This document shows, in pieces, positions 2,494 to 58,191 of a stretch of DNA of 63,273 nucleotides (its first letter is position 1; the number at the start of each line of letters is the position of its first letter). The position numbers were made by a program, and so were the translations under genes. Origin of the DNA: a virus. The notes below the pieces were generated by a model. The model had not been told where the DNA came from. It did no database searches and saw only the letters and a program-made list of their open reading frames with translations. The stretch covers positions 1-63,273 of IMG/VR virus record IMGVR_UViG_3300048583_000095; one strand, given 5' to 3'.

Positions 2494-2509
2494 CGCTCTC
2501 GTCACCTTT

Positions 2510-3439: not shown

Positions 3440-3557
3440 ATCTTCTTTCCTTTCATCCGTCGTCTACCAACCATAATACCGCTCGTGCTAGGCTTCGGTC
3501 GTACCGGTACGCAACCGGACCGATCAAGACGACGACACGATGATGAAAGGACGACAC

Positions 3558-8705: not shown

Positions 8706-9210
8706 GCAGTACGTGATCTTCGGCGTCGACCCCGGCAAGACGACGGGGCTGTTCGTGTACTCGAACGGACCCCGCTTCGGGTTCCTTGACCGGCAGTACC
8801 TGCACGACGAGGTCGACGCCGAACGGATGCCGAAGCGCATGACCGATCTGATCGTGAAGGCGACCGACTACGTCGGCTTTGGCGGCGTGTACATCGCCGT
8901 CGAACGGTTCATCATCTCGGGCCGCACGGCGAAGCTGTCGCAGCAGGCCGACGCGCTCGAAGTGACGGGGATGGTTCGCGCCTTCGCGAAGCTCCACACC
9001 CGGAACGAGATCACGCAGTACATGAAGGCGAATCTGAAGTTCGCGAGCGACGGCGCGCTGCGCAAGGCCGGGTGGTACTCGTCGAAGCTCGGACACGCCA
9101 CCGACGCCGCGCGGCAGGCGTACGCGCTGCTCAAAGATGTCGACTACCCGGAATGGCTCGCCGTGTCGAACGGTGCTATGATGAAAATCGACGACGAGAC
9201 GAAGGGATAG
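8698..9210 (+). CDS. RuvC-like Holliday junction resolvase
   Basis: N-terminal FGVDPGKTTG, VERF, C-terminal GHATDAARQA: RuvC-fold catalytic pattern. Confidence 0.7.
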   Translation: MSRQYVIFGVDPGKTTGLFVYSNGPRFGFLDRQYLHDEVDAERMPKRMTDLIVKATDYVGFGGVYIAVERFIISGRTAKLSQQADALEVTGMVRAFAKLHTRNEITQYMKANLKFASDGALRKAGWYSSKLGHATDAARQAYALLKDVDYPEWLAVSNGAMMKIDDETKG

Positions 9211-9212
9211 AG

Positions 9213-11243
9213 ATGACATCGATCATCGCAGAACTCGACGAGACGGGAAGCCGGATCGTCCTGCACGACACGCTGTGGCAAGACAAGCCGCTCGTGACGC
9301 AGATTCCGGGCAAGGAATGGAACGCCGACCTGAAGAAGTGGATGCTCCCGAAGTCGTGGGCGGCGTGCATTCAGGCGCGGGCGATCTTCGGCGACCGGCT
9401 CAAGGTCGGCAAGCTGCTCGGCGAGTGGTCGCGAGGCGAGAAGACTCGACGTGACGCGGTCCTGAAACTGCGTGACGCTCGCGAGCCCGTGCAGCCGTAC
9501 ACGCCCGTGAACGAGCACGACGAGAAGCTGTACCCCTTCCAGATTCCCGGGGCCGACTTCCTTGTGCAAGCGCGGTATGCGCTGCTCGGCGACGAGATGG
9601 GCTCGGGTAAGACGCTTCAGACGCTCGCAGCGATGCGCCGCGTCGACATGATCATGCCCGAGTACGGAGGCGGCGCGTACCCCGCGCTCGTCGTCTGCCC
9701 TAACTCCACTAAGCGGAACTGGGCTCGCGAGGTCGCGAAGTGGCTTCCCGAAGCGAACGCCGTCGTGATCGACGGTGCGGCCGCCAAGCGCCGGAAGCAG
9801 ATCGCCGAAGCGCTCGACGTTCCGAACCTCGTGCTCATCATGAACATCGAAAGCGTGCGTCTGCACTCGCGGCTCGCGCCGTACGGCTCCGTTCGCCTGA
9901 AGAAGTGCCGCGAGTGCGACCCGGTCTCGGGCGACGAGGCGTTGACTCCGGCGAAGTGCGAGACGCACGACAAGGAACTGAACTCGATTCCGTTCAAGGT
10001 CTGCGTGCTCGACGAGGCGCACCGCGTGAAGGACCCGCGAGCCTTGCAGTCCCGCGCGATCTGGCGTGTATTTCACGGCCCGACCGTGAACTACCGGTGG
10101 GCGCTCACAGGAACGCCCGTGGCGAACCACCCGGGCGACATCTGGTCGATTCTGCACACGATCGACCCGGCCGGGTTCCCGCGCAAGTCGGCCTTCATCG
10201 ACCGGTACGCGCTCACTGAGTTCAACGCCTTCGGCGGGATGTCAATCGTCGGACTCAACCCGGCGACGCGCGACGAGTTCCTTTCGCTGCTCGACGTTCG
10301 GATGCGCCGCATGTTGAAGGCGCTCGTGCTGGATCAGCTTCCGGCGAAGACGCGCGTCGTGCGCCACGTCGAGATGAGCGCGAAGCAGAAGAAGGCATAC
10401 GACGAGGTCGCGGCCGAATACGTGCTCACGACGGACTCGGGCGACAAGCTCGTCATGAACGGGAACCTCCCGGCCGCGACGCGCCTATTGCAACTCGCGT
10501 CCGCGATGTGCGACGTCGACAAGGGTGAGAACCCGGCCGACCCCGGCTCGTGGAAGGTCACGCTCACGGACCCGTCTTCGAAGGTCGACGAACTCATGTC
10601 GATCATCGACGACAACCCCGGCAAGCCGCTTGCCATTGCGGCCGAGCACAAGCAGCTTATCGACCTCGCGGCGAAGCGCCTCACGGCGGCCGGGATCGAG
10701 TACGGCGTGATCACGGGCGGCGTGTCCGGCGCGCAGCGTGACGAGACGGTCGAAGCCTTTCAGTCCGGCAAGCTCAAGTACATCTTGTTCACGTACAAGG
10801 CCGGTGGCGTCGGCCTGAACATGACGGCCGCCGACACCCTCGTGCGCTTGCAACGGTCGTGGTCGCTCATCGACAACATGCAGGGCGAAGACCGGGTGCA
10901 CCGTATCGGGTCGGAACAGCACGAGGCGATCACGATCATCGACATCATCACGGCCGACACGATCGAAGAGACGCAGGTCGAAAAGCTGTACGCCAAGATG
11001 CAGCGGCTCGAAGAGATCGTGCGTGACCGTGAGCAGCTTCAGGCGGCCGGGAAGTCGACGGCGCACCTTGACGCCGAAGCCGCTCGGATCGAATCGCTTG
11101 ATCTGCTCGATCAGGCGGCCGGATACGACGAGGCCACGGCCTACGCCAAGCACGCCGAGTACCTGAACGAGATGATCGACATCGACGCCGAGATCACGAA
11201 GTACGAAGACGCCATGAACGACGACATCGACGGAGGACCATGA
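9213..11243 (+). CDS. SNF2/RAD54-family helicase
   Basis: LGDEMGSGKTLQT (motif I), LDEAHRVK (II), LTGTPVANHPGDIWS (III), GGVGLNM and QGEDRVHRIGS (V/VI). ORF 9072.. trimmed to ATG 9213. Confidence 0.9.
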   Translation: MTSIIAELDETGSRIVLHDTLWQDKPLVTQIPGKEWNADLKKWMLPKSWAACIQARAIFGDRLKVGKLLGEWSRGEKTRRDAVLKLRDAREPVQPYTPVNEHDEKLYPFQIPGADFLVQARYALLGDEMGSGKTLQTLAAMRRVDMIMPEYGGGAYPALVVCPNSTKRNWAREVAKWLPEANAVVIDGAAAKRRKQIAEALDVPNLVLIMNIESVRLHSRLAPYGSVRLKKCRECDPVSGDEALTPAKCETHDKELNSIPFKVCVLDEAHRVKDPRALQSRAIWRVFHGPTVNYRWALTGTPVANHPGDIWSILHTIDPAGFPRKSAFIDRYALTEFNAFGGMSIVGLNPATRDEFLSLLDVRMRRMLKALVLDQLPAKTRVVRHVEMSAKQKKAYDEVAAEYVLTTDSGDKLVMNGNLPAATRLLQLASAMCDVDKGENPADPGSWKVTLTDPSSKVDELMSIIDDNPGKPLAIAAEHKQLIDLAAKRLTAAGIEYGVITGGVSGAQRDETVEAFQSGKLKYILFTYKAGGVGLNMTAADTLVRLQRSWSLIDNMQGEDRVHRIGSEQHEAITIIDIITADTIEETQVEKLYAKMQRLEEIVRDREQLQAAGKSTAHLDAEAARIESLDLLDQAAGYDEATAYAKHAEYLNEMIDIDAEITKYEDAMNDDIDGGP

Positions 11244-14498: not shown

Positions 14499-14570
14499 GC
14501 CTTCGTAGCTCATTGGCAGAGCAGCGGCTTCCAAACCCGCGTGCAGGTGGTTCGATTCCATCCGGGGGTG
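14499..14570 (+). tRNA. tRNA-Trp(CCA)
   Basis: Hand fold: acceptor GCCTTCG/CGGGGGT (G-U rich), D-arm GCTC..GAGC, anticodon loop TTCCAAA, T-arm GGTGG-TTCGATT-CCATC, G73. Confidence 0.75.
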
Positions 14571-14680
14571 CGTAGTGTGTTGATCCGTACATTGCAAGGC
14601 CACGCGACTAACCATCGCAACGGATCGACCGGCTCGGGTAGCTCCCGGGACCGGAAAAGGCTCCCGGTGGTTCGGGGGTA

Positions 14681-14746
14681 AACGTACTAGCTCAATGGCA
14701 GAGCACCCGGTGAGGGAGGTTCGGGGTTCGATTCCCCGGTACGTTA
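14681..14746 (+). pseudogene. tRNA-like remnant (66 nt) with a truncated anticodon arm
   Basis: Perfect acceptor AACGTAC/GTACGTT, D-arm GCTC-AATGGCA-GAGC and T-arm CGGGG-TTCGATT-CCCCG. Only 17 nt lie where 22-23 are needed, and no canonical anticodon loop forms. Confidence 0.5.
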
Positions 14747-14770
14747 CGAGGCGCGCAAGCGCCACACGAT

Positions 14771-14840
14771 GCGGGATAGCTTAAGGGTAGAGCTGCGGCC
14801 TCATAAGCCGTAAGGTGCCGGTTCGACTCCGGTTCCCGCT
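14771..14840 (+). tRNA. tRNA-Met(CAT) (could be elongator, initiator or Ile2 type)
   Basis: Acceptor GCGGGA/TCCCGC, anticodon stem GCGGC/GCCGT, loop CTCATAA, T-loop TTCGACT; the T-stem/acceptor junction is irregular. Confidence 0.65.
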
Positions 14841-14902
14841 ACTAGGACGGTTCGGCACGGAGTGCTCGGGGATGCACCTCATGGGAACCCGGATCGTCCG
14901 AT

Positions 14903-14987
14903 GGAAAGTGCGTGTATTGGCAAGCACAGCCGGGTTGCTAACTCGGCGATCCCGCACGGGGTCGGGGTTCGATTCCCTCACTTTCCA
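14903..14987 (+). tRNA. tRNA-Ser(GCT)
   Basis: Acceptor GGAAAGT/ACTTTCC, loop TTGCTAA, long variable arm, T-loop TTCGATT. Confidence 0.8.
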
Positions 14988-15088
14988 CTTTCGTTCCCAC
15001 GGGATGACACGGGTACGGGAGAAGGGGAACCGGCAGTACGTAGGAACTAGGCCGATGTGGCTAGGTGACCGCAAGTGCTGCCGGACAT

Positions 15089-15178
15089 GGAAAGTATGCG
15101 CCAACGGGTGCGCACCTGGTCTCGAAAACCGGGACGTCGGCCGCGAGGTCGGCGGGGGTTCGAATCCTCTACTTTCCG
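15089..15178 (+). tRNA. tRNA-Ser(CGA)
   Basis: Acceptor GGAAAGT/ACTTTCC, anticodon stem CTGGT/ACCGG, loop CTCGAAA, long variable arm, T-loop TTCGAAT. Confidence 0.8.
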
Positions 15179-15183
15179 CGCAA

Positions 15184-15269
15184 TGGCGTCAGTCGCAGGT
15201 GCGACAGCGAGCCTGTAAAGCTCGCGTCGGGGAAACTCGACAAGGTGGGTTCGATACCCACGGCGTCAA
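15184..15269 (+). tRNA. tRNA-Tyr(GTA)
   Basis: Anticodon stem CGAGC/GCTCG, loop CTGTAAA, long variable arm, T-arm GTGGG-TTCGATA-CCCAC, acceptor TGGCGTC/GGCGTCA with two G-U pairs. Confidence 0.65.
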
Positions 15270-15330
15270 CAAAGCGGCTTCGGTTCCAACACACTACTAA
15301 CGGTGCGCTGGTCTCGACCCGAAGCCGCGA

Positions 15331-15403
15331 GCCCGCCTAGCTCAGCGGATAGAGCATCCGGTTCCGGACCGGAAGGCGCGTGGTTCGAGTCCACGGGCGG
15401 GCA
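15331..15403 (+). tRNA. tRNA-Arg(CCG)
   Basis: Acceptor GCCCGCC/GGCGGGC, stem TCCGG/CCGGA, loop TTCCGGA, T-loop TTCGAGT. Confidence 0.85.
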
Positions 15404-15434
15404 CGCCAGATACACGACGAAAGAGGATGGATAC

Positions 15435-15848
15435 ATGCGAAAACTGACGAAGACGCTCGTCGCCGCTGCCGGTGCCGCGACGCTCGGGGTCACGCTCACG
15501 GCGTGCACCGCAGCCGACACGGCTTCACACAACATCTCCACAGCGGCCGAGAACTTCGAAGTCCTACGGCGCATCGTGTTCTTCAACGGGATCACGGACA
15601 CGTACCTTCTGACGATCGAAGGCCGCTGCAACATCGAAGACGAGGGCAATCAGCTCGAAGTCACGTGCAAGATCGCGGACGGCGACGGCGAGAACGCGTA
15701 CACGAAGCACTTTCTCGGCCTGTCCGACAACGTGACATACTTCGTCGAGCAGATGGAAGTCGTCGATGTCGACGAGTTCCATCACCGGATCATCTTCCGG
15801 CCCGAGACGATCGTGCCGGACATCGATCTAGAGACGTCGGGCAACTAA
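15435..15848 (+). CDS. secreted lipoprotein (signal peptide with lipobox LTAC)
   Basis: ORF 15303.. trimmed to ATG 15435 because the upstream part overlaps tRNA-Arg. N-terminus MRKLTKTLVAAAGAATLGVTLTAC. Confidence 0.8.
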   Translation: MRKLTKTLVAAAGAATLGVTLTACTAADTASHNISTAAENFEVLRRIVFFNGITDTYLLTIEGRCNIEDEGNQLEVTCKIADGDGENAYTKHFLGLSDNVTYFVEQMEVVDVDEFHHRIIFRPETIVPDIDLETSGN

Positions 15849-15854
15849 GCTTCA

Positions 15855-15872
15855 CGGGGGTGCGAGCCCCCG
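15855..15872 (+). terminator. short stem-loop after the lipoprotein gene
   Basis: CGGGGG-TGCGAG-CCCCCG. Confidence 0.45.
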
Positions 15873-15880
15873 GAAGCCGA

Positions 15881-15953
15881 GCGGGTTTAGAGTAGCGGTC
15901 ATCTCGTCACATTCTCAATGTGAAGATCACGGGTTCGAATCCCGTAACCCGTG
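15881..15953 (+). tRNA. tRNA-Glu(CTC)
   Basis: Acceptor GCGGGTT/AACCCGT, stem TCACA/TGTGA, loop TTCTCAA, T-arm ACGGG-TTCGAAT-CCCGT. Confidence 0.8.
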
Positions 15954-16037
15954 CAAGGCGACATGAGGCATACGAAGAAGGTCGCCCCGATCATCGGTCG
16001 GGAGCCGGGGGAGCCTCATCTCCGGCTCTGAAATAAA

Positions 16038-16111
16038 TGCCTTGTGGTGTAACCCGGCAACACGCTAAGCTTTGGACTTAGAGATTCTTGGTTCGAATCC
16101 AAGCGGGGCAG
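16038..16111 (+). tRNA. tRNA-Gln(TTG)
   Basis: U1-A72 acceptor TGCCTTG/CGGGGCA, stem CTAAG/CTTAG, loop CTTTGGA, G73. Confidence 0.8.
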
Positions 16112-16119
16112 CTATACGA

Positions 16120-16191
16120 TGCTCGGTAGCTCAGCGGCAGAGCGCGCGACTGTTAATCGCGTGGTCGAAGGTTCGAATCCTTCTCGGGCAG
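16120..16191 (+). tRNA. tRNA-Asn(GTT)
   Basis: Acceptor TGCTCGG/TCGGGCA, stem CGCGA/TCGCG, loop CTGTTAA, T-arm GAAGG-TTCGAAT-CCTTC, G73. Confidence 0.85.
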
Positions 16192-16211
16192 CTCGAACAA
16201 CTGAAGAACGA

Positions 16212-16283
16212 TGCTCGCTAGTTCAATGGCAGAACGGCCGCCTCTGGAGCGGAAGGTTCGTGGTTCGAATCCACGGTGAGCAG
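16212..16283 (+). tRNA. tRNA-Gln(CTG)
   Basis: Acceptor TGCTCGC/GTGAGCA, loop CTCTGGA, T-arm CGTGG-TTCGAAT-CCACG, G73; one mismatch at the top of the anticodon stem. Confidence 0.75.
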
Positions 16284-16341
16284 CTTGGACAAGCAAGACG
16301 TGAAGGCGTGACCAACCGCAGCGATGCGCGCGCCTGATCTA

Positions 16342-16413
16342 GCTCCGGTCGTCTATGGGTTAAGATCCGAGATTTTCACTCTCGGGTACAGGGTTCGAGT
16401 CCCTGTCGGAGTA
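16342..16413 (+). tRNA. tRNA-Glu(TTC)
   Basis: Acceptor GCTCCGG/TCGGAGT, stem CGAGA/TCTCG, loop TTTTCAC, T-arm CAGGG-TTCGAGT-CCCTG. Confidence 0.8.
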
Positions 16414-16605
16414 CGTGTGAGGTGACCGTGTGATAACTCTAGGTGACTCTAGAGCGTGATAACGGGTGAACTCAGGCAATGCCGGGTAAGGCTAGGGTCT
16501 CTCTGCCCCGGTCGCCGAAGTGAGGACTCGACGGTTAGTTTCCGGACGGAACCGCCGATGCCGGGTTAGTCGCCCGAATGCCTCGCGGAAGCGAGGAGAG
16601 AATAT
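16414..16605 (+). ncRNA. unassigned structured spacer inside the tRNA array (candidate small RNA)
   Basis: 192 nt with no tRNA T-loop and no ORF. Local hairpins CTCTAG-GTGACT-CTAGAG, CCGGG..CCCGG, CCTCGC-GGAA-GCGAGG. GTGATAAC is repeated twice. Confidence 0.3.
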
Positions 16606-16677
16606 GCCGTGTTAGCTCATTGGTAGAGCGTTCGCCTGTCGAGCGAAGGGTAACGGGTTCGATCCCCGTACATGGCG
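16606..16677 (+). tRNA. tRNA-Asp(GTC)
   Basis: Acceptor GCCGTGT/ACATGGC, stem TTCGC/GCGAA, loop CTGTCGA, G73. Confidence 0.85.
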
Positions 16678-16714
16678 CAAGGTTCCGACCGCTGACAGGA
16701 CGGCCGGAGCCGGA

Positions 16715-16786
16715 CGGGTTATGGCCTAGTGGGATGGCGCGTGATTTGGGATCACGAGGACCCCGGTTCGATTCCGGGTAACCCGA
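16715..16786 (+). tRNA. tRNA-Pro(TGG)
   Basis: Acceptor CGGGTTA/TAACCCG, stem CGTGA/TCACG, loop TTTGGGA, T-arm CCCGG-TTCGATT-CCGGG, A73. Confidence 0.85.
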
Positions 16787-16788
16787 CT

Positions 16789-16861
16789 GTGACGTTAGCT
16801 CAGCGGCAAGAGCGTTCGGATGTGGCCCGAAAGGTCGCGGGTTCGAATCCCGTACGTCACC
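16789..16861 (+). tRNA. tRNA-His(GTG)
   Basis: Acceptor GTGACGT/ACGTCAC, stem TTCGG/CCGAA, loop ATGTGGC, C73; no encoded G-1. Confidence 0.85.
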
Positions 16862-16876
16862 CCAACTTCATAGCAA

Positions 16877-16950
16877 GCCCCGTTAGCCCAACTGGCAGAG
16901 GCGTCTGATTTAGGTTCAGAAGGTTCCGAGTTCGACTCTCGGACGGGGTA
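16877..16950 (+). tRNA. tRNA with Leu anticodon TAG but a short (class I) variable arm
   Basis: Acceptor GCCCCGT/ACGGGGT, stem TCTGA/TCAGA, loop TTTAGGT, 5-nt variable region AGGTT, T-arm CCGAG-TTCGACT-CTCGG, A73. Confidence 0.6.
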
Positions 16951-16955
16951 CGTAA

Positions 16956-17028
16956 GCTCGTGTAGTCCAACGGCAGAGACACCGGATTCAAATCCCGGCA
17001 AGTCCCGGTTCGAATCCGGGCACGAGTA
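16956..17028 (+). tRNA. tRNA with Leu anticodon CAA but a short (class I) variable arm
   Basis: Acceptor GCTCGTG/CACGAGT, stem CCGGA/CCCGG (one A-C mismatch), loop TTCAAAT, variable CAAGT, T-arm CCCGG-TTCGAAT-CCGGG, A73. Confidence 0.6.
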
Positions 17029-17032
17029 CAGC

Positions 17033-17105
17033 GCCCCGGTAGCTCAGCGGATAGAGCGACGGTCTACGAAGCCGGTAGTCGATGGTTCGATTCCATCTCG
17101 GGGCA
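17033..17105 (+). tRNA. tRNA-Arg(ACG)
   Basis: Acceptor GCCCCGG/TCGGGGC, loop CTACGAA, T-arm GATGG-TTCGATT-CCATC, A73. Confidence 0.8.
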
Positions 17106-17123
17106 CGCAAGACAACTAGATAT

Positions 17124-17194
17124 GCCGGTGGGGTGTGTGGGTTGCACGACTGTCTTCCAAACAGTTAGACCGTGTTCGAGTCACGGTACCGGTT
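17124..17194 (+). tRNA. tRNA-Gly(TCC)
   Basis: Acceptor GCCGGTG/TACCGGT, stem ACTGT/ACAGT, loop CTTCCAA, T-arm CCGTG-TTCGAGT-CACGG, U73. Confidence 0.8.
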
Positions 17195-17267
17195 CGAGAG
17201 AAGGCGTCGCACAGACAGCAGGTGCGCGCACTGTGAAGGCTCGAAACCTTCGGCGTCTTCTCGCACT

Positions 17268-17340
17268 GCCTTCGTAGCTCAGTGGACAGAGCAGCCGTTT
17301 CGTAATCGGCCGGTCCGGGGTTCGAATCCTCGCGGAGGCT
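17268..17340 (+). tRNA. tRNA-Thr(CGT)
   Basis: Acceptor GCCTTCG/CGGAGGC, loop TTCGTAA, T-arm CGGGG-TTCGAAT-CCTCG. Confidence 0.8.
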
Positions 17341-17406
17341 CAAGGCTCGACAACGGCAGTTGGCGAGTTCGGCAAGACGTCAAATCTCGACCCCGAGATT
17401 TGAGAT

Positions 17407-17480
17407 GTCTCGTTAGCTCAGTTGGCAGAGCACCGGAGTGAAGTCCCGGGCGGCGTGGTTCGATCCCACGGCAAGAGACG
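17407..17480 (+). tRNA. tRNA-Phe(GAA), atypical T-stem/acceptor junction
   Basis: D-arm GCTC-AGTTGGCA-GAGC, stem CCGGA/CCCGG, loop GTGAAGT, T-loop TTCGATC. Acceptor GTCTCGT/AAGAGAC only fits with 2 extra nt or a 7-bp T-stem. Confidence 0.55.
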
Positions 17481-17506
17481 GTTAAGTGTGCTGCTATACT
17501 CGACGC

Positions 17507-17905
17507 ATGACGAAACGTGAAAATTACAATGAGTACATGCGCGAGTACATGCTTAAGCGATACCACCGACGCCGGTCGGACTCGATCGAGAATCTAGGCG
17601 GGAAGTGTGTCGTCTGCGGCACCACGGACAATCTAGAGATCGACCACATCGACCGGAGCACGAAGACGATGGATATCAGCGGCCTATGGTCGTGCAATAT
17701 CCAGCGGTACGAGACGGAACTCAAGCTCTGTCAACTGCTGTGCGAAGCGCACCACCAGGAGAAGACGAGCCGGGAAAGCTCTGTACCTCACGGAGGCGGC
17801 GCGTCCGGTAAGCGCAACTGTAAATGCGAACCGTGCAGACTTCGCAAAAACGAATATATGCGCAATTGGAAACAAAAGAATAAGCAAGCCTCGTTAGCTC
17901 AGTAG
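17507..17905 (+). CDS. HNH endonuclease
   Basis: CVVCGTTDNLEIDHIDRSTK ... LLCEAHHQEKT HNH/zinc motif. ORF 17486.. trimmed to ATG 17507. The last 18 nt overlap tRNA-Lys(CTT). Confidence 0.85.
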   Translation: MTKRENYNEYMREYMLKRYHRRRSDSIENLGGKCVVCGTTDNLEIDHIDRSTKTMDISGLWSCNIQRYETELKLCQLLCEAHHQEKTSRESSVPHGGGASGKRNCKCEPCRLRKNEYMRNWKQKNKQASLAQ

Positions 17906-17961
17906 GTCAGAGCTTCCGGCTCTTAACCGGTAGGTCCCTGGTTCGAATCCAGGACGGGGCA
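17888..17961 (+). tRNA. tRNA-Lys(CTT)
   Basis: Acceptor GCCTCGT/ACGGGGC, loop CTCTTAA, T-arm CCTGG-TTCGAAT-CCAGG, A73. Confidence 0.85.
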
Positions 17962-17962
17962 C

Positions 17963-18035
17963 GCCTCGCAAGCACATGTGGACGTGCTCTCGACTTTTAA
18001 TCGAGAGGTACCCGGTTCGAGGCCGGGGCGGGGCA
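17963..18035 (+). tRNA. tRNA-Lys(TTT)
   Basis: Acceptor GCCTCGC/GCGGGGC, D GCAC/GTGC, stem CTCGA/TCGAG, loop CTTTTAA, T-arm CCCGG-TTCGAGG-CCGGG. Confidence 0.85.
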
Positions 18036-18043
18036 CGTTTTAC

Positions 18044-18118
18044 ACCCCGCTAGCTCAGCGGATAGAGCCGGAGTTTCCTAAACTCTGTGGGTCTCGGGTT
18101 CGAATCCCGGGCGGGGTA
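18044..18118 (+). tRNA. tRNA-Arg(CCT)
   Basis: Acceptor ACCCCGC/GCGGGGT, stem GGAGT/ACTCT, loop TTCCTAA, T-loop TTCGAAT. Confidence 0.8.
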
Positions 18119-18119
18119 C

Positions 18120-18194
18120 GGCGAGTTAGCTCAACATGGTTAGAGCGCGATCCTGATACGATCGTGGTTCCGAGTTCAAATCTCGGGCTCGCTA
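18120..18194 (+). tRNA. tRNA-Ile(GAT)
   Basis: Acceptor GGCGAGT/GCTCGCT, stem CGATC/GATCG, loop CTGATAC, T-arm CCGAG-TTCAAAT-CTCGG. Confidence 0.8.
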
Positions 18195-18195
18195 C

Positions 18196-18268
18196 GCACC
18201 GGTAGCTTAGTGGCAAAAGCAGCGGCTTTACATACCGCTGATCGAAGGTTCGAGTCCTTCTCGGTGCA
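18196..18268 (+). tRNA. tRNA-Val(TAC)
   Basis: Acceptor GCACCGG/TCGGTGC, loop TTTACAT, T-arm GAAGG-TTCGAGT-CCTTC, A73. Confidence 0.8.
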
Positions 18269-18357
18269 CGGATACGCACGCTGTGCATGGCGTGTATAGA
18301 CGGGGTTAAGTACCGTCTCGCGGGGATGTCGCTCCCGTGTCCTCCCATGCGGCGCAA

Positions 18358-18430
18358 GGGCTGTTAGCTCCAACGGTAGAGCGTCTGTTTTGCAAACAGA
18401 GGGTTGTCGGTTCGAATCCGTCACGGTCCA
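18358..18430 (+). tRNA. tRNA-Ala(TGC)
   Basis: Acceptor GGGCTGT/ACGGTCC with a G3-U70 pair, stem TCTGT/ACAGA, loop TTTGCAA, A73. Confidence 0.85.
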
Positions 18431-18485
18431 CGGAGGGTGCGAGCGCGTGTTAACGACTTCGGCGCGCGCTCGCGCTCTACCCCAC

Positions 18486-18556
18486 GGCGTGATGTCCGAG
18501 TGGCTAGGTCGCAGACTGCAAATCTGCTCACGTGGGTTCGAATCCCGCTCGCGCCT
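18486..18556 (+). tRNA. tRNA-Cys(GCA)
   Basis: Acceptor GGCGTGA/TCGCGCC, stem GCAGA/TCTGC, loop CTGCAAA, T-arm GTGGG-TTCGAAT-CCCGC, U73. Confidence 0.8.
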
Positions 18557-18584
18557 CTCATGAAGTACGACGAAAGGACGAAAG

Positions 18585-18940: not shown

Positions 18941-18998
18941 GAGCGCGCATGAGCGCGCACCTCGTGATGAGCGCGCATCCCCCCGGATGCGCGCTCAT
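18941..18998. repeat. three direct copies plus one inverted copy of ATGAGCGCGCA; the last pair forms a terminator
   Basis: gATGAGCGCGCATGAGCGCGCAcctcgtgATGAGCGCGCAtccccccggATGCGCGCTCATtttcg. Confidence 0.9.
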
Positions 18999-19002
18999 TT
19001 TC
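18967..19002 (+). terminator. rho-independent terminator
   Basis: 12-bp stem ATGAGCGCGCAT / ATGCGCGCTCAT followed by TTTCG. Confidence 0.8.
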
Positions 19003-19003
19003 G

Positions 19004-19020
19004 TACTCTGATACAATTCG
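19004..19020 (+). promoter_or_regulatory. class-1 phage promoter-like box TACTCTGATACAATTCG
   Basis: One of four near-identical ACTCTGAYAnnATTC boxes (also at 46415, 53852, 56533), each 23-35 nt upstream of a start codon; -10-like TACAAT. Confidence 0.6.
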
Positions 19021-19047
19021 CTGACGACGAGATGAGAGGACGAAACG

Positions 19048-20268
19048 ATGAACGATTTCACTGCTACCCCGAACGGCGCGCTCGTGAGCGCGCTCGCGCT
19101 CGCAGCGCTCATGATGATCGTGATCGCGCTCGTGACCTCGCGCGGTGCGCGAGCGCGCGCAGTCGAGAAGGCGCGCGCATGGGCGGCGCTCAAGGCTCCC
19201 GAGTGGGAAGCGCGCGCTGAGCGCAAGCGCGAAGAGCGCGTATCCGGCGCGCGTAACCGAGCGCGTATCCGGGGCGCGCTCTTGCTCGCCGTCGCGCTCG
19301 TCGCGCTCGGCGCGACGAACCTGAGCGCGCACGGGACGCTCGACATGATCGCGCGCGCCGGTCTCGACTCGCTTGACGCGCAGATCGCCGTAATCGTCGT
19401 CTTCGAAATGTTCCTTGCGATTCTAGGGGCGCTCTCGTACTGGCACATGCACCACGGCACCGGGTTTAACAAGTACGAAGCTGGTGTGTGGGCGATGGCG
19501 TCGCTCATGGGCGTGCTGTCGTGGTGGGGCGCGGGAAGCATGATCTTCGCGCTGTGGCCGCTTCTCGCGGCCGTTGCGTGGCACATGGTCATCACCTTCG
19601 GACGCGAGCACAAGACGTCTCCCCTGATCACCTGGTGGCGTCTGAAGCGAGGCAAGGCGACCTCGCGCGACGCGAGCACGGTCATCACTGAGCGCCTGAT
19701 CACCCGGATCGTGAACAACGGCTACGCCGCCAACGAAGGCGCGAAGCTGCTGCGCTCGGCGCGCTCGCGCGCGTTCGACCGCGCGTGGGCGGAAGCCGAC
19801 GCGCTCGGCATCCTCACGCCCGAGGTGCGCGCGCGCATCCAGACGCGCACGGCCGCGCGCTACGCAGGCGCGAGCGCTCTCGCGCGCGACGCCGTCATGC
19901 ACATGAGCCCTTGGAATGAGCGCGCGCAGAGCGCGCGCACCGTGCGCGCAGTGCGCCCCGTGAGCGCGCCCCCCGCACTCGCCGTCGAGACGAGCGCGCA
20001 CGAGGACACCGACGAGCGCGCACCCGAGATCGTCGAGAGCGCGCCCGCGCGCGTCGTCCTTCCCGGCGCGCACACCACGGCCGATCTGATCGACGCCGTC
20101 AAGGCGAACTTCGCCGGACCGGTCGAACTCGTCGAGTGGATCGAGACGTTCATTCGCACGAACGGCGCGCTGCCCACCCGGAACGACCTCGCGGTTCCCG
20201 CGCAGAAGTCCCCCGGGCACGTGGCCCGATGGATGATGCCGGTCCGCAAGGAACTCGGCCTCAGCTAG
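19048..20268 (+). CDS. membrane protein with a C-terminal soluble domain (DUF2637-like, tentative)
   Basis: N-terminal half has about 4 TM helices (LLLAVALVALGA.., IAVIVVFEMFLAILGAL.., VWAMASLMGVLSWWGA.., ALWPLLAAVAWHMVITF). Ala/Arg-rich linker. Immediately upstream of the FtsK-like gene. Confidence 0.7.
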   Translation: MNDFTATPNGALVSALALAALMMIVIALVTSRGARARAVEKARAWAALKAPEWEARAERKREERVSGARNRARIRGALLLAVALVALGATNLSAHGTLDMIARAGLDSLDAQIAVIVVFEMFLAILGALSYWHMHHGTGFNKYEAGVWAMASLMGVLSWWGAGSMIFALWPLLAAVAWHMVITFGREHKTSPLITWWRLKRGKATSRDASTVITERLITRIVNNGYAANEGAKLLRSARSRAFDRAWAEADALGILTPEVRARIQTRTAARYAGASALARDAVMHMSPWNERAQSARTVRAVRPVSAPPALAVETSAHEDTDERAPEIVESAPARVVLPGAHTTADLIDAVKANFAGPVELVEWIETFIRTNGALPTRNDLAVPAQKSPGHVARWMMPVRKELGLS

Positions 20269-20470
20269 CGGCACAGTGAGCGGCACACCGGCACAGCTGG
20301 TGTGCCGCTCCGGCACGGTTCCCACCGGCACCGGCACACCCCCTTTGGGTGTCTGATCAGGGAAAACACCGATCCGACACGCTCGGCACGGTGTGCCGGA
20401 CTAGCGCGCGACAAAAACGAATGTGCAGGTCGGGCACCCCTAGGGGGTGCCCGCCTGGTGTGCCGTGCCG
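20269..20470. repeat. array of 11 CGGCAC hexamers (7 forward, 4 inverted) in an intergenic region
   Basis: Forward at 20269, 20281, 20289, 20311, 20326, 20332, 20384. Inverted GTGCCG at 20302, 20393, 20460, 20465. Includes palindromes CGGCACAGCTGGTGTGCCG and CGGCACGGTGTGCCG. Confidence 0.9.
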
Positions 20471-20476
20471 GAGGGG

Positions 20477-20484
20477 TGTATAAT
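20477..20484 (+). promoter_or_regulatory. consensus -10 element TGTATAAT downstream of the CGGCAC array
   Basis: TATAAT at 20479-20484 preceded by TG, 40 nt upstream of ATG 20525. Confidence 0.55.
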
Positions 20485-20524
20485 GAAATACCTGATCAAT
20501 CCACAGACGAAAGGACGACAGACT

Positions 20525-20995
20525 ATGGATATCGCGATTGAAAGCACGCTCGGGAACGGTGCCGCTGGCTTCGTTTCGCTCGTGCTCTTCGTCGGCGCGT
20601 GGATTCTGAACAACGTGCTCGATCAAAAGAAGTGGTCGGCGTTCCTCGTGCTCCCGATCGCGCTCACGGCCTCGTTCGTGCTGTACGCGTCGACCTGGTC
20701 GGCGACGTGGTGCCGCTGGATCGGCAACATCTTGGGCGGCGTCGGCGGGATGTTCGGCGTTGACGACATGCCGCTGAGCTTCATCTTCAGTCTCGCCTGC
20801 GTCGTCGCCGTCGTCGTCGTCGCGGCCGACCTCAGCATCGACCCACGCGACAACCCGGCCGCCGTGTGGTCGCTCTTCATCGCGCCGGTCACGGCGCACG
20901 GAGCGGGCGGCGTCGTCGGCAGCGCGGCCGACGCCTTCTTTAGCGGGATGGCTCTCGGGCTCATCGACGCCGTGAAGCAGTTGACGGGCGCGTGA
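20525..20995 (+). CDS. multi-pass membrane protein
   Basis: ORF 20447.. trimmed to the ATG after AGACGAAAGGACGACAGACT; 4-5 hydrophobic helices. Confidence 0.75.
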   Translation: MDIAIESTLGNGAAGFVSLVLFVGAWILNNVLDQKKWSAFLVLPIALTASFVLYASTWSATWCRWIGNILGGVGGMFGVDDMPLSFIFSLACVVAVVVVAADLSIDPRDNPAAVWSLFIAPVTAHGAGGVVGSAADAFFSGMALGLIDAVKQLTGA

Positions 20996-20996
20996 C

Positions 20997-22814
20997 ATGA
21001 CCGACGAACTTCAGAACGACGAGCGCGCACCTGCGCGCAACGCGGCGCGCGCTTCGTGGGAACTCTTCTCGCGGGGCGCGCGCCGCCACGCTGACAGCGC
21101 GCGCGCATGGGTGCGCGCCGAAGGACTCGAAGCAGTCATCAAAGAGCGCGACGCGCGCGCGATCACGGCGCACATCGAACGGGAGGCGCGCGCGCGCAAG
21201 TCGAAGCGCGCGCGCACTCGCTACACGCCGCCCCCGCGCGCGCTCGCGCCTATCGAGATCAAGGCGCGCGCGTTCGGGAAGCGCGCAGTGCGCTCGGGGG
21301 TCGCGCTCGCGATCCCGTGCGCGCTCATCGGCTACCCGGTGCACGCGCTCTTTCAGGGCGATCCCGGATTCCTGCTCGTGTGGCCTGCCACGTACGCCTA
21401 TCTCGTTTGGGACGGGTGGGCGCACCGCGCCGACGAAGTCGACGGCGCTCCCGTCGCCGACGAGGTCGCCGAGTCCGGCGAGTCGAAGCCGTCGCTCTTC
21501 GCGAAGATGCGTGGCACGTCCGGCCTGAAGCCGACGCCGGAGGAATCGGAGATCATTCACCGGATCACGGCATGGGACGAACGCGCCGCCGAGCGCAAGC
21601 TTCACGAGGTGATCCCCGGCCCCCCGGTGATCGACGAGTCGGGCTTGCTCATCCCGATCGGCTTCGCCGGGGTGTGGACTCCGGCGAAGCTCGACGAGCA
21701 AGTCGACCAGGTGCGCGCGCTGCTCGCCGTTCCCGACAAGGTGCGTACGCAAGTCAAGCCGGGAGGCACGGCCGATCGCGCGGTGCTGCGCGTCCGCACC
21801 CGGACGCGCGCGCTCGATCTGACGTGGTCGCCCGAGCGCGAAGGAATCGGGCTCGACGCCGACACGGCCGAAGTCGTCCGGGTGAACACCGATGAGCGCC
21901 TGCTCGTCGCGGGTACGTCCGGCTCGGGTAAGTCGGTCGCGCTGCGTGTGCTCATGGCGGATGCGCTCGCGAAGCCGCACACGGCGCTCGTGATCCTTGA
22001 CCTGAAGCGTGCCGAAGGCGCGCTCTGGCGTCACACGGCGCGCGTCGAGTCGGAGCCCGAAGGCGTGCAAGGCGTCATTGACGAGCTGATCGCCGAGATG
22101 AAAGAGCGCGAAACCATCATGGAATCGCGCGGCATCGACCTATGGGAGCCCACCGACGAGCGGCCGAACATCGTCGTGTCGGTCGACGAGGGTGCGGAAC
22201 TCATGGCGGAAGTTCCCGATTCAGTCGGCGGACTCCGGTCGCTTGCTCGACGTGCCCGCGCTGCGGGTATCCGCCTATGGTGGGCGACGCAGAAACCCAC
22301 CATGACGGGGAACGGTCCGGGGCTCGATTCGCAGATTGCCGGACAGCTCACGACGCAAGTGTGCCTCGCGGTCGCGGGCTCGAAGGAAGCGCGCGTTGTG
22401 CTCGGCGAAGACGCCACCGGCAAGGGATGGCACGCGGAAGACTTGGAAAAAGGCGGGTGGGCGCTTGTACGCGTGCAGGGTGAGGATCGCGCCCCCGATC
22501 CCGTCCGAGTATGGTTTATGGAAAAGGAACACGTGAAGGCGCTTCCGGCGCGCGAGGCGTGGCGACGGGAGTCGGCCGCGCCGAGTGCGTACAAGGCTCA
22601 CAACGTGCTCGACGCCGCGTTGCACCTCTCCGAAGGACTGCACGGCGTCGCCACGGCGCGGCTCGCGGCGTACCTCGGGATCACGGATGTCGAAGTGCAC
22701 ACGCGGATGCGCGCGTACGGCTGCACGCCGGAGCCGAACGCCTTCGCGATGGGCAACGGCGAAAAGGCTCGGGGATACCGCCGATCGGTTCTCGAAGCTG
22801 CGAAGAACGGATGA
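20997..22814 (+). CDS. FtsK/SpoIIIE (TraB-like) DNA translocase
   Basis: Walker A LLVAGTSGSGKSVAL, Walker B VVSVDEGAELM, N-terminal hydrophobic segment, Ala/Arg-rich N-terminus. Confidence 0.85.
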   Translation: MTDELQNDERAPARNAARASWELFSRGARRHADSARAWVRAEGLEAVIKERDARAITAHIEREARARKSKRARTRYTPPPRALAPIEIKARAFGKRAVRSGVALAIPCALIGYPVHALFQGDPGFLLVWPATYAYLVWDGWAHRADEVDGAPVADEVAESGESKPSLFAKMRGTSGLKPTPEESEIIHRITAWDERAAERKLHEVIPGPPVIDESGLLIPIGFAGVWTPAKLDEQVDQVRALLAVPDKVRTQVKPGGTADRAVLRVRTRTRALDLTWSPEREGIGLDADTAEVVRVNTDERLLVAGTSGSGKSVALRVLMADALAKPHTALVILDLKRAEGALWRHTARVESEPEGVQGVIDELIAEMKERETIMESRGIDLWEPTDERPNIVVSVDEGAELMAEVPDSVGGLRSLARRARAAGIRLWWATQKPTMTGNGPGLDSQIAGQLTTQVCLAVAGSKEARVVLGEDATGKGWHAEDLEKGGWALVRVQGEDRAPDPVRVWFMEKEHVKALPAREAWRRESAAPSAYKAHNVLDAALHLSEGLHGVATARLAAYLGITDVEVHTRMRAYGCTPEPNAFAMGNGEKARGYRRSVLEAAKNG

Positions 22815-22825
22815 AAGGAATCGAT

Positions 22826-23065
22826 ATGCCGCTGAAATGGATTAAGGACGACGAGAGCCTACACACGTACCGTGCGGAGACGGTTCGATACCGCTTCATC
22901 ATGGTCGCGCCCCTGCGTGCACGGGCGACGCTGTGGGTACAGCACGTCGCCGACGACTGGGGAGAGAACCCGATCGACCAGCGGTTGTGCCGGGGTCGGC
23001 GTACCGCCGAGCGCATCGCGCAGCGGTTCGCCGACAAGCCGTTTACGCCGCGTCGCCTGCGCTGA
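22826..23065 (+). CDS. hypothetical protein
   Basis: ATG after GGATGAAAGGAATCGAT motif. Confidence 0.65.
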   Translation: MPLKWIKDDESLHTYRAETVRYRFIMVAPLRARATLWVQHVADDWGENPIDQRLCRGRRTAERIAQRFADKPFTPRRLR

Positions 23066-23153
23066 GAAAAACTTCAAAAAATTTTGCTGTCTCGCTTGCA
23101 GCACCCGGAAGCGTCGGTATATGCTTCATAGACCGACGACGAAAGGACGAACG

Positions 23154-23621
23154 ATGAACACTCTCGCTATCACTTCCCCCGCCTCCCCGGCTCAGCTCGG
23201 CTACCTCCGTAGCCTGCTGATCGAGCGGATCGAAGACAAGGCGGCGTCGGATGCTGCTGTGCAGTGGCTCGACGGTCACCGGCTGTCGAAGGCGACGGCG
23301 TCGGCGAAGATCAAGGAATACGAGAACAAGCCGAAGTTCCGCGAAGTGCTCGACGAGGGGATGTACAAGGTCGGCGAAGACATCTTCAAGGTGTACTTCA
23401 CACAGGAAGGCCACATCGCGACGAAGCAGCTTACCCCGGACGGCTTCGAGTACACCGGCCGTAAGCCGCTCGCCGTGATCAAGCCCGAGCACCGCATGAC
23501 GCTCGACGAGGCGAAGGAATACGGCAAGGTCACCGGCACGTGCTGCTCGTGCGGTCGCCTGCTGACGAACGAAGAGAGCATTGCGGCCGGGATCGGCCCG
23601 ATCTGCGCGACGAAGTTCTAG
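23154..23621 (+). CDS. hypothetical protein with C-terminal CCxCG...GIGPxC motif (DUF6011-like)
   Basis: ATG after CGACGAAAGGACGAACG; C-terminus TGTCCSCGRLLTNEESIAAGIGPICATKF. Confidence 0.75.
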   Translation: MNTLAITSPASPAQLGYLRSLLIERIEDKAASDAAVQWLDGHRLSKATASAKIKEYENKPKFREVLDEGMYKVGEDIFKVYFTQEGHIATKQLTPDGFEYTGRKPLAVIKPEHRMTLDEAKEYGKVTGTCCSCGRLLTNEESIAAGIGPICATKF

Positions 23622-23629
23622 GGGAAAAT

Positions 23630-24076
23630 TTGAATCAACCGGGGGAGAGGGCTCGCGGCTTCGGCCGCGAGCCTTCGCGCCGTTGGCGGGACGACGCCGC
23701 CTGTCGGACGATGGCGGATCGCTACTTCGACCCGTGGGACTCCGACGACAAAGCGATCGAGCCCACGCCGACAGCGGCGCAGATATGCGGGACATGTCCT
23801 GTCCGGCGAGCCTGCCTGGTCGAAGCCATCGCGAACGCCGAGAGCTACGGGACGTGGGGTGGGCTCACCCTGAAGCAGCGGAAGAAACTCATCCGCGCGC
23901 GGAAGCGCGTCCGGTGTCCGATCTGCTCGGGGAACCTGCTCGCGCTCACGGAGGATCACGCGCAAGCCTGCCTCTCGTGCGGGATCACATGGCGCACGAT
24001 CGCCCCTACCCGTCGTAATGCGCAAGCCAGTTCACCGGAACGTCCACCCACGTCGACACGTCAGCGGACCCGCTGA
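23630..24076 (+). CDS. whiB: WhiB-family Fe-S transcription factor with an extra C-terminal zinc-ribbon-like CPIC...CLSC
   Basis: WRDDAAC...CGTCPVRRAC...GTWGG WhiB signature. The only in-frame start upstream of the first Cys is TTG 23630. The 3' end overlaps convergent gene 24006..24488. Confidence 0.75.
   Translation: MNQPGERARGFGREPSRRWRDDAACRTMADRYFDPWDSDDKAIEPTPTAAQICGTCPVRRACLVEAIANAESYGTWGGLTLKQRKKLIRARKRVRCPICSGNLLALTEDHAQACLSCGITWRTIAPTRRNAQASSPERPPTSTRQRTR
23650..23673 (+). terminator. GC-rich hairpin (terminator/attenuator-like) inside the 5' end of the WhiB ORF
   Basis: GGCTCGCGGC-TTCG-GCCGCGAGCC. Confidence 0.5.
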
Positions 24077-46716: not shown

Positions 46717-46744
46717 TGAGCCCGCCCCTTCGGGGGCGGGCTCA
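46717..46744. terminator. bidirectional terminator hairpin
   Basis: TGAGCCCGCCCC-TTCG-GGGGCGGGCTCA between convergent genes. Confidence 0.8.
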
Positions 46745-48292: not shown

Positions 48293-48303
48293 ACCGTGAG
48301 TAT

Positions 48304-48330
48304 ACGAAAACGGCCGCCCGAAGGCGGCCG
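48304..48330 (-). terminator. terminator hairpin upstream of the terminase gene
   Basis: Coding-strand CGGCCGCC-TTCG-GGCGGCCG followed by TTTTCG. Confidence 0.65.
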
Positions 48331-48339
48331 TTCGCGGTG

Positions 48340-57966: not shown

Positions 57967-58191
57967 ATGAAGAGCAAGCAGACGCGCGCGCAGCGCGCCG
58001 AGCTGAAGCGACGCGGGATCAAGCCCGGCAAGGTCACGGAGGAGAACCAACACGGGCAGGCGACGGGGGGATGGTCGCCGTTCGCCGCGCCTGCCGCTCC
58101 GGCCCGGATGGAACCGGTCGACGACGTCGCGTACGACGCCTTCGACCGCGTCAACCGGTCATGGTTCACGCACAAGCCGAAAGGGCAGTAA
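57967..58191 (+). CDS. hypothetical protein
   Basis: ATG 57967 within ORF 57622..58191; basic N-terminus. Confidence 0.6.
   Translation: MKSKQTRAQRAELKRRGIKPGKVTEENQHGQATGGWSPFAAPAAPARMEPVDDVAYDAFDRVNRSWFTHKPKGQ

Follow-up and report, generated by a model that had tools for sequence, protein, structure and literature searches.

The window analysed here is the whole 63,273-nucleotide sequence of IMG/VR virus record IMGVR_UViG_3300048583_000095, a tailed-phage genome. Its hexamer CGGCAC and the inverse GTGCCG form a dense array at positions 20269–20470, upstream of an operon encoding a small membrane protein and an FtsK-like double-stranded DNA (dsDNA) translocase. A reading made from the letters alone (the sequence-only reading) had placed this array between a membrane-protein gene and the FtsK-like gene. 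The upstream part of that placement stands, as the array is preceded by a gene for a membrane protein with a helix-turn-helix (HTH)-like tail; the downstream part does not, as the gene for a 156-amino acid membrane protein intervenes before the FtsK-like gene. The features of the locus are listed below. Conservation is taken from alignment A1, which consists of 12 sequences (the window and the relatives that hold the region).

19048–20268, plus strand: gene for the 406-amino acid membrane/HTH protein, ending one base before the first repeat.
20269–20340, plus strand: left arm of the array, with forward hexamers starting at 20269, 20281, 20289, 20311, 20326, and 20332 and one inverted copy at 20299–20307.
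20281–20307: inverted repeat CGGCACACC-N9-GGTGTGCCG within the left arm; both 9-mers are fixed in all relatives and the N9 spacer is variable (A1).
20355–20367, plus strand: degenerate left box GATCAGGGAAAAC; the relatives have GACCTGCG(A/G)AAAC at the same place.
20375–20398, plus strand: central block CGACACGCT-CGGCACGGT-GTGCCG, made of a degenerate copy, a forward copy, and an inverted exact 9-mer (20390–20398).
20425–20431, plus strand: right box core GCAGGTC, invariant in 12 of 12 sequences.
20431–20453, plus strand: perfect 10-bp hairpin CGGGCACCCC/GGGGTGCCCG, containing two degenerate copies (GGGCAC/GTGCCC), −31.3 kcal/mol.
20457–20470, minus strand: two promoter-proximal inverted copies (GGTGTGCCGTGCCG), which cover the −35/spacer region 9–22 bp upstream of TATAAT.
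20479–20484, plus strand: predicted −10 hexamer TATAAT of the membrane-protein/translocase operon; GTATAAT is unique in the window.
20509–20527, plus strand: ribosome-binding site (RBS) GAAAGGA (20509–20515) and ATG (20525) of the 156-amino acid gene; the RBS block is conserved in A1.
20525–20995, plus strand: gene for the 156-amino acid small membrane protein, first of the operon.
20997–22814, plus strand: gene for the 605-amino acid FtsK-like dsDNA translocase, second of the operon.

The array contains 11 hexamers, seven forward (the six of the left arm and one starting at 20384) and four inverted (starting at 20302, 20393, 20460, and 20465), and every coordinate given for them in the sequence-only reading was recovered. 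So were its two palindromes (CGGCACAGCTGGTGTGCCG at 20289–20307 and CGGCACGGTGTGCCG at 20384–20398), its GGGCACCC-CTAG-GGGGTGCCC hairpin (20432–20452), and the TATAAT following the array. Its estimate that far fewer than one copy would be expected in 200 bp agrees with the background rate, which predicts ~0.23 copies per 202 bp. The Poisson probability of at least 11 hexamers in 202 bp is 2e-15, or ~6e-13 once the number of window positions is corrected for, and among 200 simulated first-order Markov genomes the largest number in any 202 bp was 5 (mean of maxima, 2.8). The hexamer itself has no genome-wide enrichment, with 83 copies in the window as compared with 77 expected from shuffled sequences. 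When all 6-mers were compared, the array was among the four strongest 6-mer clusters of the genome. The strongest of all (GCGCGC, 19 copies in 202 bp, along with 15 of CGCGCG) is located at 21023–21280, in the Arg/Ala-rich N-terminal coding part of the translocase gene, and may be a mere effect of codon and amino acid composition.

The repeat unit is longer than the hexamer. There are five exact copies of the 9-mer CGGCACACC (+20281, −20299, +20332, −20390, and −20457), all within the array and none elsewhere in the 63 kb of the window. The copies form an N9-spaced and an N3-spaced inverted pair, in addition to the 10-bp hairpin. Because the word is present in both orientations, the single-strand folding potential of the array is very strong (DNA z-score, −7.6). 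The array is slightly AT-richer at 20410–20423.

Twelve relatives of the translocase, having 60–88% amino acid identity to it, were fetched from IMG/VR, and 11 of these contain the array region. The equivalent intergenic region, which the sequence-only reading had singled out for comparison, carries the array in all 11, with 6–10 hexamers within 215 bp at a distance of 660–790 bp upstream of the translocase start, as against a background of 1.2–2.4 copies per kb at the same loci. The array is kept even where the translocase is only ~60% identical to that of the window. The fixed words of A1 are, in order, CGGCACACC-N9-GGTGTGCCG; CCGGCACACC; the box TGACCTGCG(A/G)AAAC, degenerate in the window; GnCACnnTnGnCACGGTGTGCCG; GCAGGTC; CCTGGTGTGCCGTGCCG; GTGTATAAT; the RBS; and the ATG. 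Across the relatives the 9-mers are constant and the spacers variable, and GnCACnnTnGnCACGGTGTGCCG of the central block is almost invariant. The left box has three mismatches in 13 in the window and is perfect or has one or two mismatches in relatives L003 and L005–L010, and the right box in the relatives is the reverse complement of the left box. The array ends in the relatives with a conserved TATAAT, RBS, and ATG, with the −10 element being TATAAT in 11 of the 12 sequences and TACAAT in L008. The promoter-proximal element GTGCCGTGCCG is conserved in all relatives, and in L008–L010 it lies 5 bp nearer the −10 element, with the distance from CCTGGTG to the −10 element constant at 25 bp.

The 10-bp hairpin at 20431–20453, by contrast with these words, is not retained as a hairpin in the group with ~60% identity. 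RNA covariation is essentially absent from the alignment (RNAalifold covariation term, −0.36 kcal/mol), and Rfam detected only tRNAs in the window, with no family match in the array at the gathering threshold. These two analyses rule out a conserved RNA structure or a known RNA family. Fixed words without covariation indicate selection for the words in the DNA and not for an RNA fold, which is what sites bound by proteins would show. The repeats are thus real, specific to this locus, and conserved in sequence. The phages bearing the array form a widespread uncultured group, represented by more than 100 metagenomic protein clusters.

The product of the FtsK-like gene is, by homology, a TraB/Tra-family translocase. 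It matches Pfam FtsK_SpoIIIE (1e-18) and is 38–43% identical to Tra of pIJ101-type plasmids over residues 176–531 (E 1e-41 to 5e-51). Its relatives in the plasmid collection (E <=1e-8) are exclusively Tra proteins of small plasmids, 15 of 16 from Streptomyces and pIJ101 included, and the best NCBIfam model is plasmid_TraB (3.9e-14, far below the equivalog cutoff). In the AlphaFold (AF2) model, which has a predicted local distance difference test score (pLDDT) of 82.7, the motor matches FtsK (Foldseek 3e-18), and the N-terminal helices include two hydrophobic ones at residues 85–142. The C-terminal domain (~535–605) adopts an H-b-H-H-b-b fold, with a pLDDT of 89 when modelled alone. In its modelled architecture the protein thus matches TraA and TraB, which likewise combine hydrophobic helices at the N terminus with an FtsK motor and a C-terminal winged helix, the latter predicted in the phage protein. 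The winged-helix domain is largely invariant in the family of the window, with 25 of 75 columns fixed, among them E-V-H-x-R-M in helix 3 and K-A-R-G-Y-R-R in the wing; the repeat word is likewise invariant in this family.

Related arrays occur in more distant elements. In Lipingzhangella halophila (L017/L059), where IMG/VR calls the region a 59.9-kb provirus, a translocase with 38% identity to that of the window is followed directly by an array of five GGTGTTCC(G), the box ACCTGCGAAAAC, three (T)GGAAC(G/A)C, and then GCAGGTC. Its word, GGTGTTCCG, is one base removed from that of the window (8/9), the flanking boxes are the same, and the array is intact in the provirus. The translocase there retains the KARGYRR wing and has HTAMAA in helix 3 instead of HTRMRA. 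In Nocardiopsis dassonvillei (L019), ten GGTGAAC/GTTCACC repeats surround a perfect 13-bp inverted repeat, GACCTGCGAAAAC/GTTTTCGCAGGTC, and this different repeat accompanies a translocase with an unrelated MarR-like winged helix. The Nocardiopsis array starts directly behind the stop codon of the translocase gene, and two terminator-like hairpins lie between it and the following gene, which argues that it is not a promoter-operator of that gene. The small membrane protein also recurs, as a homologue of the 156-amino acid protein (145 amino acids, 34% identity, E 7e-12) precedes the Lipingzhangella translocase, and a 149-amino acid gene occupies the corresponding place in Nocardiopsis. Judged from these sequence relationships, homologous arrays travel with the pair of genes encoding a small membrane protein and a TraB-like protein in distant elements.

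Among cultured phages, the Woodruffviruses YDN12 and Xkcd426 have a translocase 36% identical to that of the window with a C-terminal Pfam HTH_24 winged helix, and 6–7 direct copies of GGAACG(G) between a membrane/HTH gene and the FtsK-like gene (L013, 3056–3379; L014, 2561–2864). In both, as in the window, a membrane/HTH gene is followed by a ~300-bp noncoding region with 6–7 words (GGAACGG), a −10-like element, an RBS, and the FtsK-like gene. They differ from the window in that the word is another one, all copies are direct, and no gene for a small membrane protein lies in between. No description of this array was found in the literature searched. In YDN12, CTGACCTGC overlaps the upstream stop codon.

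A scan of IMG/VR for the box pair yielded 25 loci, of which 19 belong to the family of the window. Three others (L041, L042, and L044) combine the same boxes with other words (ATGCAAG, TGCAACA, and CGGCAAC) at the 3' end of genes for P-loop ATPases of 720–800 amino acids with FtsK-like motifs, an assignment that is weak (Pfam FtsK E 4.5e-4 for L044; hhalign E 0.03–0.085 for L041 and L042). L034 (TGCATGG/CCTTGCA) has the same layout, and its flanking gene, which is cut by the locus end, is L041-like by eye only. In the ~60% relatives a single box is found 2.5 kb upstream, where it overlaps a stop codon close before a TTGACA-N17-TAGGGT promoter (L006:3493, L007:2573, L008:3082, L009:2332, and L010:2741). 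GGAAAC(C) repeats (GGAAACGGAAACCGGAAACC) lie upstream of TraB-like genes with MarR-type winged helices at L060 (~3450–3550) and L020 (4476–4753) and resemble the G(A/C)AAC repeats of the pIJ101 clt locus.

On this comparative evidence, the explanation that suits the array best is a clt site of the TraB-type translocation systems, in a variant form carried by a phage and joined to the promoter of the module. More precisely, we give a probability of about one in two to the array being a clt-like site at which the TraB-like pump would assemble and which is fused to the promoter of the pump operon. The sequence-only reading had suggested either a cis site for the translocase analogous to clt and its TRS repeats or a set of operators controlling the translocase gene; comparison among elements lends support to this proposal, favoring the clt alternative while leaving room for the operator.

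The clt loci of Streptomyces plasmids are described as containing direct 8-bp repeats recognized by the corresponding TraB (PMC4447253, PMC3583192). For pSVH1, TraB is described as assembling on an 8-bp TRS in direct repeats. The clt of pWTY27 spans 175 bp at the end of traA and has four 7-bp TGACACC repeats along with inverted repeats, on which TraA leaves a footprint (PMC3583192). As given in the same source, pJV1 clt has nine 9-bp repeats, CCGCACA[C/G][C/G], which are 8/9 identical to CGGCACACC, and two pairs of inverted repeats, and pIJ101 clt has an imperfect inverted repeat and G(C/A)AAC repeats near korB (PMC3583192). The presumed clt of pSTVU1 is in the korB-traB intergenic region just upstream of traB, as the phage array is upstream of the translocase. 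The phage array shares with these loci the form of a 50–200-bp noncoding locus beside a TraB/Tra-family gene, with several to nine copies of a 5–9-bp word and with inverted repeats, and it shares the property that the word differs from element to element. In pIJ101 itself, the region that matches the published account of clt lies between korA and an 80-amino acid coding sequence; size and position led us to take the latter for korB, a name that no family search gave it. G(C/A)AAC-type repeats in this region surround CTGACCTGCGAA, the box of the arrays in the phage relatives. The arrays of Lipingzhangella and Nocardiopsis, which lie at the 3' end of the homologous gene, occupy the classical position of clt, and this favors the clt interpretation for the phage array as well.

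The favored candidate for the reader of the repeats is the translocase itself. We favor it because its winged helix is largely invariant in the family of the window, as is the word, and both are altered in Lipingzhangella and Nocardiopsis, whereas the HTH tail of the neighboring 406-amino acid protein is variable. By analogy to TraB of pSVH1 and TraA of pWTY27, membrane-anchored translocase hexamers would assemble on CGGCACACC-type repeats through their C-terminal winged helices, and the pump so formed would carry the dsDNA of the phage through a barrier, either a membrane or a septum. Since the predicted promoter of the operon lies within the array as well, occupancy of the copies at 20457–20470 would damp expression of the potentially toxic pump. 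Such autoregulation by the reader of the array is plausible and would take the place of the plasmid TraR/KorA repressor. Plasmid traB genes are under kil-kor repression (TraR/KorA, of the GntR family), and their unregulated expression is toxic.

Several differences set the phage array apart from plasmid clt loci. It is found in a 63-kb tailed-phage genome rather than in a plasmid or an actinomycete integrative and conjugative element (AICE), it is fused to the predicted promoter of the operon, and no TraR/KorA repressor gene was found near the array or among the open reading frames (ORFs) tested. No report of a clt-like site in a phage was found in the literature searched.

The following points weigh against the clt interpretation. 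The copies are in mixed orientation and irregularly spaced, whereas the TRS of the pSVH1 type are direct repeats. The left box of the window is itself degenerate as compared with the box of the relatives (three mismatches in 13). The likeness of CGGCACACC to the pJV1 repeat concerns the repeat as quoted in PMC3583192 and not the pJV1 sequence. The best Foldseek matches of the C-terminal domain of the translocase are winged-helix repressors (SmtB, CzrA, and the MarR family) at the weak level of E 0.06–0.4, FtsK-gamma is not among its top matches, and no plasmid homologue of the domain was detected. The 406-amino acid protein, having an HTH tail and being encoded beside the array, is another potential reader. 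Box pairs are also found where there are no repeats, beside an integrase (L045:12901–12965) and upstream of a terminase (L055:541–621), and GACCTGCG is a common 8-mer in high-GC DNA.

The chromosomal integrative elements of Streptomyces (L023–L030, ~8820–9260) add to these points. Their translocases are 46–48% identical to that of the window. Arrays of 10–11 copies with the CTGACCTGC box are found in them ~2.5 kb downstream of the translocase gene, flanked by a Rep-like gene on one side and xis-int on the other. The word is ATGACGCA in L025 and CCGCTAC in the others; the TraB winged helices are near-identical, while Rep is unrelated and the integrases are 26% identical. The words of these elements thus track Rep and Int rather than TraB, and their arrays are probably origins or recombination sites of the elements. 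The architecture of repeats plus box is broader than clt and is not specific to TraB. Because the arrays of these elements track Rep/Int and the box occurs without repeats, we hold our confidence in a clt-like site at about one half.

The FtsK-like motor suggests a second comparison. KOPS and SRS are chromosome-wide, strand-polar words that direct an already loaded FtsK or SpoIIIE motor. The phage system resembles these in that a motor of the FtsK family, equipped with a C-terminal winged helix, would read a word of 8–9 bp. It differs from them in that the hexamer is not over-represented in the window and the exact 9-mer is found at one locus and in both orientations. An exact word confined to one locus and present in both orientations has the look of a loading or assembly site, as in clt.

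A purely transcriptional array of operators is a possible but unlikely alternative to a clt-like site. A regulator of the phage or the host would bind the repeats cooperatively and control the promoter at 20479–20484 of the membrane-protein/translocase/WhiB block, and the translocase would never read the repeats. The arrangement of the promoter gives this explanation some force. The conserved −10 element, RBS, and ATG follow the array directly, and sites 20457–20470, conserved in all relatives, overlap the predicted core promoter, with two copies over the −35/spacer region. A TTGACA-type −35 element is absent before TATAAT in a sigma-70 scan, its space being filled by the two proximal copies. 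The 5-bp shift of the proximal GTGCCGTGCCG in L008–L010 leaves it over the core promoter and suits occlusion better than it suits a fixed −35 element or an activator site. The palindromic pairs (N9 and N3) resemble operators of dimeric regulators, and kil-kor repression of plasmid traB genes, with repeated or palindromic sites overlapping the promoter of the translocase gene (predicted in the phage), offers a precedent. The overlap of two proximal copies with a conserved promoter makes an operator-like side function of the array plausible.

Other observations argue against operators as the whole explanation. The homologous arrays of Lipingzhangella and Nocardiopsis are downstream and not upstream of the translocase gene, which sets them apart from kil-kor operators as well, and in Nocardiopsis hairpins separate the array from the next gene. 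Eleven or more copies over 200 bp, reaching to about −210, are many for one promoter. No GntR/TraR-like, Cro/CI-like, or other classical regulator was found with Pfam or PHROGs among the ORFs tested, which do not include all small ORFs, except for WhiB and the HTH tail of the 406-amino acid protein. Two wider transcriptional roles were rejected. A promoter motif shared throughout the genome is ruled out, as GTATAAT is unique and there is no TTGACA-type −35 element here, and an operator or stoperator motif distributed throughout the genome is ruled out, as the 9-mer is confined to the array and GTGCCGTGCCG (<=2 mismatches) occurs elsewhere at the level of chance.

Less probable still is a cis site of a DNA-transfer module read by the C-terminal HTH of the 406-amino acid protein. 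The array would then serve for tethering or hand-over, in the manner of SpdA2 with sps or of SpdB2 with DNA. DNA binding and interaction with TraB are known for SpdB2-type proteins, and the repeats bound by SpdA2 lie within or close to the gene that encodes it; the sps of pIJ101-type plasmids is a 12-bp palindrome in two to three copies that affects plasmid stability. The 406-amino acid protein has an N-terminal charged coil, ~4 transmembrane helices, a low-complexity linker, and the C-terminal HTH-like tail, and it has more than 140 metagenomic homologues. Proteins of the same architecture flank the arrays in Lipingzhangella (422 amino acids) and YDN12 (gp70, whose tail is a sub-threshold MerR/HTH_17 match), and the gene of the window adjoins its array. 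No sequence homology of the 406-amino acid protein to either of these proteins was detected, and it has no match in Pfam (tried to E 10), PHROGs, or NCBIfam. Homology to SpdB2/SpdB was not detected by Pfam, tblastn against plasmids, NCBIfam, or hhalign against pIJ101 SpdB, and the likeness to SpdB2 is one of architecture alone.

The pattern of conservation speaks against this protein as the reader. The HTH tail is the least conserved part of the 406-amino acid protein family, whereas the repeat is invariant, and the tails of the 406- and 422-amino acid proteins are unrelated to each other though their repeats are 8/9 identical. No such gene was seen beside the Nocardiopsis array, where the contig ends 1.9 kb upstream. 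The 406- and 422-amino acid genes each hold an internal array, which is a more natural target of their HTH, compare SpdA2 and sps. In the window this is (T/G)GAGCGCGC, six copies in 127 bp at 19918–20044, read in frame as S-A-[R/P/H] or E-R-A. GAGCGCGC occurs 50 times in the window as compared with 23 expected, 17 of these within 18941–20044, and the internal array is found at the same place in 10 of 10 relatives checked, with 3–8 copies (at least five in nine of them) and varying intervening sequence. In Lipingzhangella the linker-coding part of the 422-amino acid gene (8958–9316) has another word, with nine GTCTCA followed by eight TGAGAC, 17 in all. By analogy to SpdA2, the HTH tail of the 406-amino acid protein may have the GAGCGCGC array as its target. 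Being located in the gene itself, this array is a closer parallel to SpdA2-sps than is the intergenic array; there is no sequence similarity to sps.

It is very improbable that the array is a replication origin or a set of iterons for a phage initiator. The many short repeats in both orientations, the AT-richer stretch, and the folding z-score would suit an origin, as would the similar arrays of repeats and box beside Rep-like genes in the Streptomyces integrative elements. The replication genes (primase, polymerase, helicase, and exonuclease) are however at 0.9–12.5 kb, there is neither an adjacent initiator-like gene nor an AT-rich core, and the cumulative GC skew does not turn at 20.3 kb. 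Positions 560–870, adjoining the 3' end of the primase gene (883–2631, minus strand), make a much better candidate, with an AT-rich core at ~600–680 that has 11-bp iterons (ATCCCTGCACA/TGTGCAGGGAT) of both orientations on its flanks; CCCTGCA occurs there ~9 times in 175 bp, of 17 copies in the genome.

Least probable is that the array is a by-product of transcription signals, namely a terminator of the 406-amino acid gene (hairpin 20278–20310, starting 10 nt past the stop codon), an insulating hairpin (20431–20453), or a structured 5' leader or RNA element, since the two hairpins, despite their stability (−34.7 and −31.3 kcal/mol; z-scores, −3.1 and −2.1), have no U-tract, a terminator scan is empty here, covariation and an Rfam match are lacking as described, the second hairpin is lost in the ~60% group while the surrounding words are kept, and several copies are outside any hairpin. 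The predicted −10 element is moreover downstream of almost all copies, so that most of the array would not be in the transcript of the operon. A packaging (pac/cos) site is ruled out, as a conventional large terminase gene is far off at 46742–48481, and attP is ruled out, as no integrase was found among the ORFs tested and the homologous array is intact in the Lipingzhangella provirus.

The rest of the genome is that of a tailed phage, having capsid, tail, terminase, and DNA polymerase genes. Nucleotides 1–127 of the window are identical to 63147–63273, which indicates a circular assembly and a complete genome of 63,146 bp. The genes for primase, tape measure, major head, portal, and large terminase are on the minus strand, and those for DNA polymerase, helicase, and exonuclease are on the plus strand. 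The operon genes are followed by those for a DUF6011 protein and a WhiB-like regulator (22872–24076), directly downstream of the translocase gene. There are 28 tRNA genes, a large number for a 63-kb phage, of which 27 form one 4-kb cluster (14499–18557) just upstream of the module and a lone tRNA-Ser is at 58096–58182 (minus strand). Accessory genes encode a Ro-like TROVE/vWA protein (52086–53732) and a Rho_N-domain protein (49554–49994). Positions 19000–23000 had no megablast match among GenBank phages, the phage has no close cultured relative, and it is known from metagenomes only. Neither an integrase nor a classical repressor was found among the ORFs tested.

A further-reaching idea, which we put forward tentatively and consider doubtful, is that a phage without detected lysogeny genes has a complete and functional module of the Streptomyces type, consisting of an SpdB2-like membrane protein, a clt-like site, a small membrane protein, and a TraB-like pump. 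The module would pump the phage's own replicating dsDNA through hyphal cross-walls or into neighboring compartments, so that infection would spread in a mycelium without virions, and the array would serve as an address label by which the genome of the phage, rather than host DNA, is chosen as cargo. Thoma et al. (2015; PMC4447253) went no further than to speculate that Spd homologues (SpdB2) on actinophages might help spread phage DNA.

The box TGACCTGCG(A/G)AAAC along with lineage-specific short repeats recurs in plasmids, integrative elements, and phages of actinobacteria, and no published account of such a shared box with lineage-specific repeats was found in the literature searched. FtsK-like translocase genes are annotated in many Streptomyces phages, and a clt-like array gives the idea of phage DNA spread a concrete handle. 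A defined DNA fragment, a 75-residue domain, and a deletable element make the role of phage FtsK/TraB-like genes testable. If the clt interpretation is true, phages of mycelial bacteria would have co-opted the conjugation machinery of plasmids together with its cis site. This would blur the line between conjugative element and virus and would add a virion-independent route of phage spread.

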